64,000 nucleotides of DNA from contig JAUMYT010000004.1 in the NCBI GenBank assembly GCA_030528525.1, positions 68,407-132,406 on the forward strand. Reading direction: 5' to 3'. Position numbers and translations under genes: made by a program. Numbering within the stretch: the stretch's first letter is position 1; each line of letters opens with the position of its first letter. The stretch comes from Pasteurellaceae bacterium. Lineage in GTDB: Bacteria > Pseudomonadota > Gammaproteobacteria > Enterobacterales > Pasteurellaceae. The notes under the pieces were generated by a model. It did no database searches and was not told the origin of the DNA. It was given only the letters and a program-made list of their open reading frames with translations. This document shows, one piece after another, positions 3,154-52,490 of the stretch.

Positions 3154-3249
3154 TACTTTCTCCTTTATGTATGGATATTTTAGGGTTCATTTTGTCCAAA
3201 ATAGACAGCGGGCGAATTATAAGCAAGTCATGCAAAATTGGTACCGATT

Positions 3250-3774
3250 TTAACTTAATTTACCAATCTTTAAGGCAAACTCACGTACTTGAGTCCAGTC
3301 GGTGTATTCATATTCTTGGCGGGTATCTGTTTCACCGCCAGTCATCTTCATGATAAAACGGATAATCAAGCGATCAAACCAACGATAACGAGGGTAGCGT
3401 AGCGCTCCTGCGAAAACCTCGACCCAATTGGGTTTCCAATCAATTTTCTCCAGCAGTTTACGTGTATAAATATTTGTTGTCGGTGTATTGCGATTAGCTT
3501 TACGAGCAGTAAGATTCACACTAAAAAAGGCAGAATGTCTTTGATTAAGCAAGGCGGAATGCATACTAATAAACTGTGCCAAAACCGGTGAAAAGTGACC
3601 ATACCGAATCGATGCACCAATAACAATCCGATCAAATTCAGCAAGCTGATTTGATGACATATTGATATGATCACGCAAGCAAAACAATTCTACATTCTCA
3701 AGATGTGAAGCAATATACTCTGCAATTTTTTGGGTCTGCCCGTCGTAGGTAAGATAGAAAATAGCGGTTCTCAT
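3250..3774 (-). CDS. hemG: menaquinone-dependent protoporphyrinogen oxidase (flavodoxin-like)
   Basis: 174 aa, strong match in memory to E. coli HemG (VIGASIRYGH..., ALRYPRYRW...). Confidence 0.85.
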   Translation of the reverse strand: MRTAIFYLTYDGQTQKIAEYIASHLENVELFCLRDHINMSSNQLAEFDRIVIGASIRYGHFSPVLAQFISMHSALLNQRHSAFFSVNLTARKANRNTPTTNIYTRKLLEKIDWKPNWVEVFAGALRYPRYRWFDRLIIRFIMKMTGGETDTRQEYEYTDWTQVREFALKIGKLS

Positions 3775-18802: not shown

Positions 18803-18877
18803 TGGCTGGAGTACTAGGATTCGAACCTAGGAATGCTGGGATCAAAACCCAGTGCCTTACCGCTTGGCGATACTCCA
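18803..18877 (-). tRNA. tRNA-Gln (anticodon TTG)
   Basis: Reverse complement TGGAGTATCGCCAAGCGGTAAGGCACTGGGTTTTGATCCCAGC...CTCCAGCCA; cloverleaf with TTG anticodon. Confidence 0.85.
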
Positions 18878-18914
18878 AAAGAAAAAACTAACCTAAAGTT
18901 AGTTATATTTGATA

Positions 18915-18989
18915 AGAAATAAGATGGCTGGAGTACTAGGATTCGAACCTAGGAATGCTGGGATCAAAACCCAGTGCCTTACCGCTTGG
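18915..18989 (-). tRNA. tRNA-Gln (anticodon TTG), second identical copy
   Basis: Identical 75-nt sequence to previous copy. Confidence 0.85.
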
Positions 18990-19024
18990 CGATACTCCAG
19001 TCGTTTTATTTGCTAAGCCATAAA

Positions 19025-19109
19025 TGGTGCGGGACGAGGGACTTGAACCCACACACCTCTCGGCGCCAGAACCTAAATCTGGTGCGTCTACCAATTTCGC
19101 CAGTCCCGC
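19025..19109 (-). tRNA. tRNA-Leu (anticodon TAG)
   Basis: Reverse complement GCGGGACTGGCGAAATTGGTAGACGCACCAGATTTAGGTTCTGG...; long variable arm; near-identical to E. coli leuW. Confidence 0.85.
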
Positions 19110-19111
19110 AA

Positions 19112-19188
19112 TGGTGGCTACAACGAGATTCGAACTTGTGACCCCAACATTATGAGTGTTGTGCTCTAACCAGCTGAGCTATGTAGCC
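19112..19188 (-). tRNA. tRNA-Met (elongator, anticodon CAT)
   Basis: Reverse complement GGCTACATAGCTCAGCTGGTTAGAGCACAACACTCATAATGTTGGGGTCACAAGTTCGAATCTCGTTGTAGCCACCA. Confidence 0.85.
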
Positions 19189-26141: not shown

Positions 26142-26240
26142 GGAGCGAAAAGTCAGTTCCTGTCTCAAATCCCTACGCTGATATTAGTCAGATCAGGTTC
26201 TATGGGTATTTCTCAGCTTTGCGAACAAAGCACCCCAATG
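26142..26240 (-). promoter_or_regulatory. TPP riboswitch (THI element) in thiB leader
   Basis: Minus strand GGGGTGC...GCTGAGAAATACCC...GAACCTGATCTGACTAATATCAGCGTAGGGA matches the THI-box consensus. Confidence 0.8.
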
Positions 26241-26278
26241 AGAACGGGCGGATTATACCGCTGTTAAAGAAAGTGGTG

Positions 26279-28578: not shown

Positions 28579-28750
28579 CTCTCTCCCGTTTACGGGAGAG
28601 AGACAGCAAAAAATGCGTTCAGTATTTTTTGCAGAGAGAGGGCAACAAGTAGTGATGTATCACTTATTTTTAAATTTAGAAGCCCTCTCCCTCCGAAAAT
28701 CCTATGGATTTTCTCCACCCTCTCCCGTAAACGGGAGAGGGTAATTGATA
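28579..28750. repeat. Family B MITE-like element with hairpin termini (CCCGTTTACGGG)
   Basis: ctctctcccgtttacgggagagagac...ccctctcccgtaaacgggagaggg. Confidence 0.75.
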
Positions 28751-28813
28751 GGGAGTAGATTTGCAGAAAATTGCAAAGATCTGCCCCCTTGCATTGGGGA
28801 TTATCACAGTTTC

Positions 28814-38230: not shown

Positions 38231-38275
38231 ATGTTTACTTTTGCTATCCATCATCATCACCATTTCCCTGAATAA
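38231..38275 (+). CDS. His-rich leader peptide MFTFAIHHHHHFPE
   Basis: AGGAG RBS 5 nt upstream; five consecutive His codons; followed by hairpins and terminator before transporter gene. Confidence 0.6.
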   Translation: MFTFAIHHHHHFPE

Positions 38276-38362
38276 TCTTTCGGGCATTTGGCGTGTTCGG
38301 AAGAACTTCCGAACAATCGAAATGTGATAAATGATAGCAAATTAAGCATAAACCATTTCAAA

Positions 38363-38405
38363 CCCCTTCGGAAGTCCAAACTTTCGAAGGGGTTTTCTTT
38401 TTCAT
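38363..38405 (+). terminator. Attenuator terminator
   Basis: CCCTTCGGAAGT-ccaa-ACTTTCGAAGGG followed by GTTTTCTTTTTC; upstream CTTCCGAA can alternatively pair with the 5' arm. Confidence 0.65.
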
Positions 38406-41677: not shown

Positions 41678-41790
41678 AATCTGCCCCCGCTTGCGGGGGA
41701 AGTGGTTGAGCGAAGCGAAACCGAAGGGGGCGATAATTACCCCCTACCCCTTGCTTCGCAAGGTACTTCCCCCGTAAACGGGGGCAGAAT
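41678..41790. repeat. Family B MITE-like element
   Basis: atctgcccccgcttgcgggggaagt...acttcccccgtaaacgggggcagaat inverted termini. Confidence 0.8.
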
Positions 41791-42822: not shown

Positions 42823-42950
42823 TCCCCTCCCCCGTTTACGGGGGAGGGATAGGGTGGGAGGAACAATTTTGCAAAACGTGGCATAAATTCAGCCCCCGTT
42901 GCTTCGCAATCTCCCCTCCCCAGCCCTCCCCCGCAAGCGGAGGAGGGAGT
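42823..42950. repeat. Family B MITE-like element
   Basis: atcccctcccccgtttacgggggagggat...ccctcccccgcaagcggaggagggag. Confidence 0.75.
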
Positions 42951-42980
42951 ATTTAAAATTGAATTTTAGTTGGAGTATCA

Positions 42981-49456: not shown

Positions 49457-49604
49457 ATTCTGCCCCCGCTTGCGGGGGAAGTACCGCCGAAGGCGGGGTA
49501 GGGGGCGAAACGATGGTTCTGCAAAAAATTGGTAAGAAATTACCGCTTGTTTGCCCCCTTCGGCTCGTTTCACTCGCCACTTCCCCCGCAAGCGGGGGCA
49601 GAAT
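49457..49604. repeat. Family B MITE-like element, intact reference copy
   Basis: ATTCTGCCCCCGCTTGCGGGGGAAGT...ACTTCCCCCGCAAGCGGGGGCAGAAT terminal inverted repeats; internal hairpins; contains ACCGCTTGT (USS reverse complement). Confidence 0.8.
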
Positions 49605-49606
49605 TT

Positions 49607-50230
49607 TTAATCTCTCGTATAATCTTCCCGCACAATCCGCACATATTGCCCGATACTGTGCCAGCCGAGTGTGAGATAAAGCTGTTTGCCCATTTCGCTA
49701 GCACAGAGCAAGCCTTGGTGAATACCCCGTTCAGCCGCTTTTTTGTTGAGTAACGCCATCACTAGCGTGCCGAAACCCTGACGGCGGAAATTCGGCTCGG
49801 TGCCGATTCTGTCTGGCACAATAAAGCCGTGGTAAAAACCCGCTTGCCCTTCGCACACCAGCTCGTCGTTTGGGCTGAAGAGGCTTAACACCTCCCGATT
49901 GTCGCTTTCTTCCCATTTAAGGGTAAATTTTTCGGGTAACGTGACCTCTTGTTGGGACAGTTGCTCACATACCATCATATCGGCAGTCATTGTCTGCTTC
50001 CAGCCTTGCGGAACCGCCTTCAAACCGCTAACGCACAAATAATCTTTATTCGACACTCTCGGCAAAATTTCGCCTAAATTTTCTGGGCTGAACATCAACC
50101 ACTCAAATTGTCGCCTGCCGTCATTAAGGGCAAAGCAGTATCCGTTTTCAACAGCGGTAGGTTGCGGAATTTGGCGAGAAATCACCCAACCGCCGATCCA
50201 ATTTTCCCAAAATGTTTTGCTGTTCATCAT
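49607..50230 (-). CDS. GNAT family N-acetyltransferase
   Basis: 207 aa; C-terminal RRQGFGTLVMALL...GW acetyl-CoA binding motif. Confidence 0.65.
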   Translation of the reverse strand: MMNSKTFWENWIGGWVISRQIPQPTAVENGYCFALNDGRRQFEWLMFSPENLGEILPRVSNKDYLCVSGLKAVPQGWKQTMTADMMVCEQLSQQEVTLPEKFTLKWEESDNREVLSLFSPNDELVCEGQAGFYHGFIVPDRIGTEPNFRRQGFGTLVMALLNKKAAERGIHQGLLCASEMGKQLYLTLGWHSIGQYVRIVREDYTRD

Positions 50231-50277: not shown

Positions 50278-50982
50278 CTAATCCGCCGAATAATACAATT
50301 TGCCGATTTCTATCTTCTGGCGACCTTGGGCTTCACGCCATTTATTCGTATCACGCAACGAATACACACAGCCACAATACTCTTGCTGATAGAACCGCTC
50401 CCGTTTGCTGATTTCAATCATTCGTTGCGAGCCGCCGCCTTTTCGCCAGTTGTAATCCCAATAGACCACATCATCGTATTTTTCCGCCGCACGATGTCCA
50501 CAGCCGTTGATTTGGTTCATATCTTTCCAGCGAGAAATCCCCAAGCAACTGGTAAATACAGGGAAGCCATTTTCGTGGGCGTATTGAGCGGCTTTTTCAA
50601 ACCGCATATCAAAGCACATTGTGCAACGAATGCCACGCTCTGGCTCGTCTTCCATACCTTTGGCACGGTTGAACCACTCTTGGCGGTCGTAATCGGCATC
50701 AATAAACGGAATACCCCATTTTTCCGCAAAACGAATGTTCTCTTCCTTGCGGATCAAATACTCTTTGAGTGGGTGAATATTCGGGTTGTAGAAGTAGATG
50801 GTAAATTCAATACCCGAAGCGTGAATCGCTTCCATTACTTCGCCCGAACAAGGGGCACAGCAAGAGTGCAACAGCAATTTGTTGTGTCCGTTGGGGAGTT
50901 CTAATTTTTCACGCACAAACGGAGCGTTGGGGTCTTTGCCTTTACGGGTTTTCTTGATGGTTTTTTGTTCTGTCATAATCAT
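50278..50982 (-). CDS. queH: epoxyqueuosine reductase QueH (DUF208)
   Basis: [11 protein letters not shown] and CTMCF cysteine motifs. Confidence 0.8.
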
Positions 50983-50998
50983 TTATGTGAAAGATAAA

Positions 50999-51491
50999 AT
51001 TCTGCCCCCGCTTGCGGGGGAAGTACCCGAACGACAGTTCGGGGGTAGGGGGCAAAATCGTTTTAAGGGTTACGGTTTAAATGCAGATAAATTTCATCTA
51101 GCACGTTATTTAATTGGGTTTTGATTTGATGATTAGTAAACCGTAATACTTTAAATCCCGATTGATTTAGTATAACTGTTCTTTGTTCATCATAATCTAA
51201 TGCTTTGGGTTCAAAATGTTGTGAACCATCAATTTCAATAATTAATTTAGCAGGAATACAAACAAAATCTACGATATATCCTGCAATCACGGCTTGTCGC
51301 CGAATTCTAAATTGGCTTAATCTGCCTTTACGGATTTGTTGCCATAAAATGACCTCTTCAAAAGTCATATTTGAGCGAAGTTGCTTTTTATATTTTGTTA
51401 GGGTTGCTGTTTCTGATTGCCTAAAATTTTTCATATTGCCCCCTACCCCTTCGCTACGCTCAGGTACTTCCCCCGCAAGCGGGGGCAGAAT
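50999..51491. mobile_element. Family B element split into two halves by a DUF559 gene
   Basis: Left half ATTCTGCCCCCGCTTGCGGGGGAAGT...(50999-51060) and right half ...ACTTCCCCCGCAAGCGGGGGCAGAAT (51436-51491) flank ORF exactly. Confidence 0.7.
51063..51434 (-). CDS. DUF559 (Vsr/restriction-endonuclease-like) domain protein
   Basis: 124 aa from MKNFRQSE...; VDFVCIPAKLIIEIDGSQH...VLRF matches DUF559 core; ORF-track N-terminal 22 aa are read-through of repeat. Confidence 0.75.
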   Translation of the reverse strand: MKNFRQSETATLTKYKKQLRSNMTFEEVILWQQIRKGRLSQFRIRRQAVIAGYIVDFVCIPAKLIIEIDGSQHFEPKALDYDEQRTVILNQSGFKVLRFTNHQIKTQLNNVLDEIYLHLNRNP

Positions 51492-51509
51492 TTTATCCAC
51501 TTAGTGAAT

Positions 51510-52490
51510 TTAGTAAGAACGATCCACCGACAAATACGCCAATGAACTCAACGCTTGTTTAAACTCGCTCTCTGGCAAAATGGCGATGGCATCCACGGCT
51601 TTTTGGGCTTCTTGTTTGGCTCGGTTCATTGTGTAATCCAATGATTTTTGTTCTGCCATAATCGCTAAAATTTCGTCTAAGGCATCACGTTTGCCACCTT
51701 GCTCAATCGCTTCACGGATTAACGCAGCCTGTTGTGGATTGCCGTTTCGCATTGCGTGGAGCAATGGCAATGTTGGCTTGCCTTCGGCTAAATCATCGCC
51801 GATATTTTTGCCCAATTTTTCCGCATTGGCACTGTAATCCAAAATATCATCAACAAGTTGGAACGCTGTACCCAAATAGCGACCGTAATCCTGCAAGGCT
51901 TTTACTTCTGCTTCAGTTGCCCCAGCCACCAACGCAGCACATTGCGTTGCCGCTTCAAACAGGCGAGCCGTTTTGCTGTAAATCACCTGCATATAATTTT
52001 CTTCGGTGGTGTCTGGGTCGTTGATGTTCATCAGCTGCTGCACTTCGCCTTCGGCAATCACATTGGTCGCATCGGACATCACTTTCAGTACAGGCAACGA
52101 GTTTAGGCTGGTCATCATTTGGAACGCCCGAGTGTAGATAAAATCGCCCACCAACACACTTGCCGCATTGCCAAAGCGAGCGTTGGCGGTCTCTTTGCCC
52201 CGACGCATATCCGACTCATCCACCACATCGTCGTGCAGCAGGGTCGCAGTGTGGATAAACTCCACAAACGTCGCACAAGTGATGTGATCTTTGCCCTGAT
52301 AGCCCAACGCCTTGGCAGCCAGCACCGCAATCAGTGGACGAATGCGTTTTCCGCCGCCGCTGATGATGTAATGCCCCAGCTGATTGATAAGAACAACATC
52401 AGAATTGAGTTGGGAGAGAATAGCGTGATCGACCGCTTGCATATCGGCGTTGGCAAGTTGAGAGATTTGTTCGAGAGTCAGTTGTGTCAT
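51510..52490 (-). CDS. ispB: octaprenyl diphosphate synthase
   Basis: Start at MTQLTLEQ...; DDVVDESDMRRG and DDILD motifs. Confidence 0.85.
   Translation of the reverse strand: MTQLTLEQISQLANADMQAVDHAILSQLNSDVVLINQLGHYIISGGGKRIRPLIAVLAAKALGYQGKDHITCATFVEFIHTATLLHDDVVDESDMRRGKETANARFGNAASVLVGDFIYTRAFQMMTSLNSLPVLKVMSDATNVIAEGEVQQLMNINDPDTTEENYMQVIYSKTARLFEAATQCAALVAGATEAEVKALQDYGRYLGTAFQLVDDILDYSANAEKLGKNIGDDLAEGKPTLPLLHAMRNGNPQQAALIREAIEQGGKRDALDEILAIMAEQKSLDYTMNRAKQEAQKAVDAIAILPESEFKQALSSLAYLSVDRSY

Follow-up and report, generated by a model that had tools for sequence, protein, structure and literature searches.

Within a 64,000-nt stretch of DNA from a Pasteurellaceae bacterium (GenBank assembly GCA_030528525.1, contig JAUMYT010000004.1, positions 68,407 to 132,406 of the forward strand; the whole stretch is hereafter called the window and is numbered from its first letter), a single gene of the DUF559 family lies between two inverted, structured DNA repeats, referred to here as arms, with ispB and queH as its neighbours. 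The gene (51063-51434, minus strand) encodes a YcjD-like nuclease of 123 aa with a Vsr-type PD-(D/E)xK fold, and its ATG (51434-51432) and TAA (51065-51063) were read directly from the sequence. The downstream, or D-type, arm (50993-51060, plus strand) consists of a C5/G5 hairpin, termed hairpin 1 (51005-51020), a perfect mini-hairpin (CCCGAAC-GACA-GTTCGGG, 51026-51043) and a mirror G-tract (TAGGGGG, 51046-51052), and it abuts the stop codon of the gene with a gap of 2 nt. The upstream, or U-type, arm (51435-51497, minus strand) presents hairpin 1, followed by the conserved segment GAGCGTAGCGA with its GCGTAGC mini-hairpin and then by GGGGTAGGGGG. The two arms are inverted with respect to each other and pair over 41 nt (50993-51033 with 51457-51497, 95% complementary) and 17 nt (51042-51058 with 51433-51449, 94% complementary), and the DUF559 gene is the only open reading frame (ORF) that they bracket.

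The junction on the right-hand side is equally close. The arm's terminal ...GGGGTAGGGGGCAAT directly precedes the ATG, and the last G-tract of the U-type arm stands 5 nt before it, which is the position expected of a ribosome-binding site. A longer ORF of 145 aa, opening at GTG 51500, begins with MDKILPPLAGEVPERSEGVGGN, which is translational read-through of the right arm, and a similar N-terminal extension is present on a deposited Glaesserella parasuis protein (P0005). Artefactual peptides of this kind, at the N- or the C-terminus, also occur on other DUF559 proteins in the databases, examples being LPPLAGEVPERSEGAGGG, PSPQPSPLRGEG, PPHPDPLPKGEG and PPFTKGG. Read-through of the arms accounts for a recurrent annotation artefact, namely the proline- and glycine-rich extensions of DUF559 proteins, for example PLAGEVPERSEG and PSP..GEG. 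An earlier, sequence-only reading of this DNA had already described two inverted halves around a DUF559 ORF, a stop codon abutting the left half and an N-terminal extension arising as a read-through artefact, all of which are confirmed here. The protein length that it gave as 124 aa is corrected to 123 aa, and the start codon, which it placed 1-2 nt inside the right half, instead abuts the arm.

The identification of the ORF as DUF559 is firmly supported by the Pfam model (PF04480), whose match scores 131.7 bits where the cut-off is 20.6, with E=1.2e-38. No models other than those for DUF559 and related PD-(D/E)xK families match this ORF; no match to the Vsr model (PF03852) is listed at E up to 0.01, and the domain search revealed no transposase domain in the ORF between the arms. 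Because the NCBIfam model for the YcjD equivalog (PRK09767) scores 85 bits, under its cut-off of 218 bits, the protein is considered a relative of YcjD and not an equivalog. The catalytic-type residues D56, E67, D69 and H73 are invariant across the DUF559 family alignment, and these conserved acidic and histidine residues, together with the Vsr-like fold, place the protein among the DUF559 Vsr-like nucleases. Its sole sequence relative in the PDB is an uncharacterised Neisseria protein (3HRL). Among the Pasteurellaceae copies, the gene is under purifying selection, with a ratio of nonsynonymous to synonymous substitution rates (dN/dS) of 0.06-0.26 at a synonymous divergence (dS) above 1. Plasmids and phages seldom carry DUF559 relatives (38 of 72,556 plasmid records and 3 of 50,697 phage records), and no second DUF559 gene occurs within the 64-kb window. 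No methyltransferase gene is adjacent to the gene in the window, and none was found among the genes called around the loci of its homologues.

The arms are built from three parts, namely the C5/G5 hairpin (CCCCCGCTTGCGGGGG), a second, variable hairpin, and a G-tract mirroring the 3' half of hairpin 1 (GGGGGAAG ... GAAGGGGG or TAGGGGG). A scan of a genome collection with hairpin 1 yielded at least 117 loci among the matches listed, chiefly from Alphaproteobacteria and also, among others, from Haemophilus paracuniculus, G. parasuis, Luteimonas and Dialister, and all of these listed loci share the three-part grammar. The second hairpin assumes 86 distinct sequences in 107 arms, and 76% of the arms keep a terminal stem that is 4 bp or longer, as compared with 7% of shuffled sequences. 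Since the stems stay paired in spite of these 86 sequences, the structure of the second hairpin is conserved by compensatory change. Its loops are of the C-GNA-G / GCGAAGC type, for which Hirao and Yoshizawa described DNA mini-hairpins of exceptional stability. When the arms are folded with Watson-Crick pairs only, the C-tract competes between the two G-tracts. No Rfam family covers the arms, the only hit being one chance miRNA match far under threshold, and a scan of 50900-51620 detected no promoter or terminator in them.

By their sequence, the arms fit the definition of the box C / PIT / TM motif, whereas triplex formation itself is predicted. They contain, in order, a pyrimidine stem, a loop, a purine stem, a second loop and a mirror purine tract, in agreement with Table 1 of PMC4666352, and they form inverted pairs of two arm types, each element of the window joining a U-type arm with GAGCGNAGCGA to a D-type arm with the perfect hairpin. 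PMC4666352 relates that box C was found in Escherichia coli in the 1990s (Bergler 1992), that Maher's group found the motif again in E. coli, Synechocystis and H. influenzae, and that the earlier studies cited there had seen no promoter or terminator activity of PIT elements. Holder et al. catalogued such intrastrand-triplex motifs in more than 260 genomes, pointing out that the purine-type triplex cannot form in RNA, that inverted pairs in E. coli always join a type A with a type B motif, and that no transposase or other mobility function had ever been seen near the motifs (PMC4666352). Like box C, PIT and TM_ECO elements, the present repeats follow the stem-loop-stem-loop-mirror purine tract grammar, are intergenic, often occur as inverted pairs of two arm types, and belong to a class found in hundreds of genomes including H. 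influenzae. They differ in two respects: the second loop of the window family is expanded into a GNA mini-hairpin of its own, and a specific gene family is attached here, whereas published work on the motifs reports no associated gene.

Gene-less versions of the element are also present in the window. A 25-mer arm core, CTGCCCCCGCTTGCGGGGGAAGTAC, occurs six times (up to 3 mismatches allowed) as compared with no occurrence in shuffled sequences, and these six occurrences constitute three elements of one sequence family, termed family B, comprising the gene-bearing element and two gene-less doublets. One of the latter (41679-41790) has a minimal spacer, with the U-type arm to its left and the D-type arm to its right, and the other (49457-49607) has the D-type arm on the left and the U-type arm on the right of a 45-nt central spacer containing ACAAGCGGT. 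Both arm types are thus found in the two gene-less copies as well as in the gene-bearing one; at the related locus L214, the same loop-2 sequence is carried on both arms. Once joined, the halves that flank the DUF559 gene can be aligned from end to end with both gene-less copies and likewise with copies in other genomes, and the gene takes the exact place of the central spacer of 0-45 nt, in keeping with the earlier proposal that the element is split at its middle. No target-site duplication was seen among six aligned copies. Two additional gene-less doublets display the same motif grammar, one belonging to a sister family (42826-42975, with CCTCCCCCG...CGGGGGAGG stems) and one to a third family (28581-28758, with CCTCTCCCG...CGGGAGAGG stems). 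In total, a custom motif finder, which recovers all six family-B arms as well as the E. coli TM_ECO beside ycjD, identifies five doublets in three sequence families in the 64-kb window against one DUF559 gene.

The central spacer of the doublet at 49457-49607 deserves separate mention. A segment of it, ...TTACCGCTTGTTTGCCCCC, is shared with H. paracuniculus (L067), where the matching spacer segment lies at approximately 3160-3175. The ACAAGCGGT within this spacer (49542-49550, minus strand) is the 9-mer of the Apl-type Pasteurellaceae DNA uptake signal, which occurs six times in the window; with an uptake signal in its spacer, the repeat could thus be carried along by natural transformation. 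Elsewhere in the window, Rfam models identify a cluster of four tRNAs (18806-19188), a thiamine pyrophosphate (TPP) riboswitch (26152-26247) and a histidine operon leader (38251-38399).

A comparison with related genomes shows that the arms and the gene occur together at different places. The unit adjoins ispB in the window, which derives from a metagenome-assembled genome and whose IspB is identical to MDO4697595.1, and it does so too in Pasteurellaceae bacterium Orientalotternb1 (L214) and in the near relatives L010-L012, whose DUF559 protein is 90% identical. Its neighbours are a beta-galactosidase gene on one side and an EIIA gene on the other in Ursidibacter (L009, 71% protein identity), and in G. 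parasuis (L004, 68% protein identity) it lies, with variant arms, between a pilin gene and a pilB-like gene. The unit accordingly occupies three different chromosomal sites within the Pasteurellaceae, and its arm-gene junctions are conserved across genera. The G. parasuis locus (CP121769) is looser in layout than that of the window: clusters of several extra arm copies (2700-2990 and 3400-3700) flank the DUF559 gene, and spacers of about 55-65 nt separate the gene from the nearest arms. A search of related genomes for arm-bracketed DUF559 genes had been suggested in the sequence-only reading, and it succeeded in all of these loci (L009, L010-L012, L214 and L004) and also in Maricaulis (L078), where a DUF559 gene with 36% protein identity to that of the window lies between a U-arm and a D-arm.

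The corresponding intergenic site was examined in two relatives that lack the unit. In Vespertiliibacter pulmonis, ispB and queH are separated by a clean 70-nt spacer, and in Frederiksenia canicola, which has the most similar named IspB (94%), the spacer is filled with unrelated sequence; neither contains a doublet. The unit is therefore present in some close relatives and absent from others, and it is located at different loci in different genera. The F. canicola sequence (L211, 3482-3691) is a different insert of 210 nt with its own hairpin, GTTACTTTTCTTTGCATTGCCAAAGAAAAGTAAC, and two short-read contigs (L212 and L213) end at about 3588, inside it. As both contigs break in this insert, it may represent another repeat family using the ispB-queH site.

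Conservation is evident in the arms as well as in the gene. Between the window and L010, the U-arm differs at 2 positions only. Hairpin 1 and the G-tract of the Pasteurellaceae D-arm are kept, while its second hairpin has been swapped for a different but equally perfect one. Given how little has changed over a dS above 1, the arms are constrained, or homogenised against other copies, and are not decaying; they are conserved beyond neutral expectation. Over a larger distance, the U-arm of Maricaulis (L078, 1003-1055) is identical to the window sequence at 41681-41730 in 48 of 50 positions, which would reflect either a recent interclass transfer of the repeat or extreme sequence constraint. Inversion of the gene between its arms was also considered and set aside, the gene and ispB being codirectional in the window, L010 and L214. 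In a previous study (PMC9881135), the 'DUF559 domain-containing protein' appears, without comment, as enriched among predicted inversion targets, in a list of products enriched for flanking inverted repeats.

The generality of the association was assessed in a metagenomic sample consisting of the 80 best relatives of the window protein (36-51% identity), which is a sample of its closest kin and not of the whole Pfam family. Clustered at 70% identity, the 80 fetched loci fall into 73 groups, their GC content ranging over 30-69%, and 64 non-redundant loci were used for motif counts, with other ORFs in the fetched loci serving as controls. The motif finder is permissive (7-nt stems, one mismatch per element), and the argument is carried by these matched controls. 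A PIT-type motif was found within 130 nt of the start or stop codon in 62 of the 64 DUF559 genes as compared with 8 of 72 control ORFs (Fisher 4e-27), all eight of the latter having the motif on one side only. Motifs on both sides were present at 36/64 DUF559 genes and 0/72 control ORFs (Fisher 1e-15). Motif density amounts to 8.4 per kb at the ends of DUF559 genes and 0.36 per kb elsewhere, and a significant inverted repeat between the 150-nt flanks was detected for 26 of 72 DUF559 genes versus 4 of 90 control ORFs. In the commonest layout, a plus-oriented motif ends at the start codon and a minus-oriented one starts at the stop codon, and in many relatives the last codons and the stop lie inside the arm. 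Some of the metagenomic arms practically are the E. coli TM_ECO sequence, and L145 has an identical CCCTCTCCCTTTGGGAGAGGGCTAGGGTGAGGG on both sides of the gene. The 895 kb searched contain 460 PIT-type arms, and DUF559 is the sole gene that recurs in tight brackets. With 62 of 64 genes accompanied by the motif, the link between the DUF559 nuclease gene and an inverted-repeat element that had been suspected from one locus extends far beyond it.

Several observations qualify this survey. Locus pairs with a shared arm stem have a protein identity of 52.8% as compared with 46.6% for other pairs, so that arm and protein track each other weakly. Other candidate cargo genes, namely KAS, MurB, SdhB and ThiC-like fragments lying between solo arms, were rejected because, judged by sequence alone, they look like ordinary genes. 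Some DUF559 relatives may be domain fusions instead of stand-alone genes, as at L187 (1520-4900, 1126 aa) and L205 (1721-4168, 815 aa), where long ORFs span the DUF559 match. Both of these long ORFs have a PIT motif upstream only, and the control ORFs with strong flanking inverted repeats in L187 and L205 are located beside or inside them.

The association is also seen in well-known bacteria. The ycjD gene of E. coli K-12 extends into a C-rich hairpin, and a TM_ECO of type 'A mm' is located about 170-200 nt downstream. Between the gene and this TM_ECO (L210, NC_000913 1351040-1351760) lies a duplicated fragment of the 3' end of ycjD (GGAGACGGTGCTGGAGAATATTC...). The gene is present in 3378 of 5426 complete E. 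coli genomes, and ycjD and the efflux operon eefRABCD are alternative occupants of the fabI-sapF site (PMC12817139). A megablast search with a 66-nt box C query places the repeat at 1-7 positions per E. coli genome, a count that is biased by the query locus. In Neisseria gonorrhoeae, one motif is found just upstream of the DUF559 gene and three more downstream, and the Neisseria protein of PDB entry 3HRL is likewise encoded near motifs. DUF559 copies of Sinorhizobium, Deinococcus and Picosynechococcus have motifs at or near their ends.

The architecture of the unit, its generality, its occurrence at differing loci and the selection acting on both gene and arms are observations from which any interpretation has to start. 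The explanation that we tentatively prefer is that the DUF559 gene and its two arms may form one conserved selfish or semi-domesticated module, a RAYT-like, gene-bearing member of the doublet family. When replication, transformation or supercoiling stress leaves the arms single-stranded or extruded, they would fold into the C5/G5 hairpin and the GNA mini-hairpin, with the third G-tract pairing as a triplex. The Vsr-fold nuclease would recognise the folded arms of its own repeat family and nick or cut them, and host break repair or template switching from another family member would then maintain, homogenise and occasionally spread both the doublets and the gene-bearing copy. In addition, the upstream arm would provide the G-tract for ribosome binding.

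Such a module can be compared with the REP/REPIN and RAYT system (REPtron), with which it shares a single chromosomal nuclease-type gene between inverted structured repeats, the abundance of the repeat as gene-less inverted doublets, a mostly chromosomal location with persistence at the locus and rarity on plasmids, and repeats that look designed for folding as single-stranded DNA. The enzymes are different: DUF559 is a Vsr-fold PD-(D/E)xK hydrolase and not an HUH Y1 tyrosine transposase, and it cannot rejoin DNA. As its enzyme is not an HUH transposase, the unit lacks the defining trait of a RAYT. Its repeats combine a hairpin with a mirror G-tract in place of the GTAG/CGTC tag of REP sequences, and activity on the repeats is, in the case of DUF559, something that we infer here. 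The asymmetric ends of IS200/IS605 elements and the attC sites of integrons are likewise foldable as single-stranded DNA, with the left side differing from the right, whereas the present unit has neither an HUH transposase nor an integrase and shows no evidence of a circular intermediate.

A number of points weigh against this preferred explanation. The action of the protein on the arms and every mechanistic step are what we infer from the arrangement. A hydrolytic nuclease of 123 aa cannot rejoin DNA, so insertions at naive sites are left unexplained, which weakens the proposal, and no target-site duplication is visible. The near-identity of the Maricaulis U-arm, set beside proteins of only 36% identity, argues against a tight co-evolution of protein and arm. 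In E. coli, 38% of complete genomes lack ycjD and most of these still have box C, and Holder et al. reported that TM_ECO loci are largely fixed among strains (PMC4666352). Moreover, a DUF559 protein of Caulobacter, VsrA, has a methylation-linked, host-level phenotype (PMC12907096).

Among the competing explanations, the strongest is a homing-type cargo, a possibility that appears somewhat doubtful to us. Here, the doublets would spread by other means, and DUF559, as a free-standing homing endonuclease, would cut doublet centres and be copied in by break repair, which would make the gene a parasite of the repeat and not its parent. The precise replacement of the central spacer in an element that is intact elsewhere is what homing predicts, the near-universal flanking by motifs would be equally expected of a homing gene, and the weak tie between arm sequence and protein sequence points the same way, as does the fact that, among fold relatives of characterised function, the nearest is a homing enzyme. 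However, the ispB-queH alleles of Vespertiliibacter and Frederiksenia, which should offer the intact target, have no doublet, an argument that is weak with two empty alleles; the two nearby intact doublets of the same family are unfilled, the window having one copy of the gene; and gene and arms are tightly co-adapted, the arm supplying the ribosome-binding tract and receiving, in relatives, the last codons and the stop. As compared with I-Bth0305I and related homing endonucleases with a Vsr-like domain (PDB 3R3P), the DUF559 gene is not inside an intron or intein, its protein has no separate DNA-binding domain, and, should it have a target at all, this would be a structured repeat in many copies instead of a unique gene sequence. 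The module of gene and cognate arms is preferred over homing because one gene copy stands against several gene-less doublets, because the empty orthologous site has no doublet, because gene-less copies share a spacer of their own between species, and because arm and gene ends are co-adapted.

An unlikely alternative is that DUF559 is a host repair nuclease, that is, a solitary Vsr-like endonuclease for mismatched or damaged DNA, with the motifs acting as expression signals or with its gene being a favoured landing place for an unrelated repeat. Caulobacter VsrA, which drives the SOS response when the solitary cytosine methylase ScmA is absent (PMC12907096), provides a precedent, and strong purifying selection, a chromosomal location with rarity on plasmids and phages, and a G-tract at Shine-Dalgarno distance would all suit a host gene. 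On the other hand, the unit retains its arms although the loci at which related genera carry it are unrelated, some close relatives have it and others lack it, and the arms have the same sequence as the multi-copy gene-less repeats. An expression role finds little encouragement in the lack of promoter and terminator activity of PIT elements in the earlier work quoted in PMC4666352 or in our own scan, which found none. Unlike Vsr and VsrA, the window protein has no listed match to PF03852 within the stated limit and no linked cytosine methyltransferase gene nearby, and its gene is embedded in repeats and varies in location between relatives. Finally, that two solo arms or an unrelated repeat landed by coincidence beside an ordinary gene is very improbable: arms are dense in the searched DNA (460 in 895 kb) and solo arms do flank ordinary genes such as murB, sdhB and thiC fragments, but the association statistics against control ORFs, the conserved arm-gene junctions across genera and the end-to-end alignment of the halves with intact copies all stand against chance.

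The sequence-only reading had left a choice between cargo inserted into the element and an autonomous parent of non-autonomous copies of the MITE type (miniature transposable elements with inverted repeats). The evidence leans slightly towards a cognate gene of the repeat family. The MITE label itself has to be given up: in contrast to MITEs and insertion sequences, there is no transposase in the window ORF and no duplicated flank in the six aligned copies, and the arms are box C / PIT-type motifs.

In the openly readable full-text literature, no report of a link between DUF559 and box C / PIT repeats was found. The cataloguing of box C / PIT / TM motifs dates from 1992 and covers E. coli and more than 260 genomes; the motifs have been tied to local genome instability, with no origin, function or associated gene known. 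DUF559, in turn, is a very large family of 'unknown function' to which E. coli YcjD and a Neisseria protein of solved structure belong. It is possible, and we suggest it with caution, that YcjD-like DUF559 proteins are the missing enzyme partner of box C / PIT / TM repeats across bacteria, in which case a Vsr-fold nuclease would recognise folded hairpin-triplex DNA and drive the maintenance and spread of these repeats. The near-universal physical link makes both of these orphan families directly testable. If true, the proposal would add a second repeat-plus-enzyme system beside REP/RAYT, from which it would differ in both enzyme fold and DNA structure, and would define a new class of nuclease-dependent structured-DNA element.

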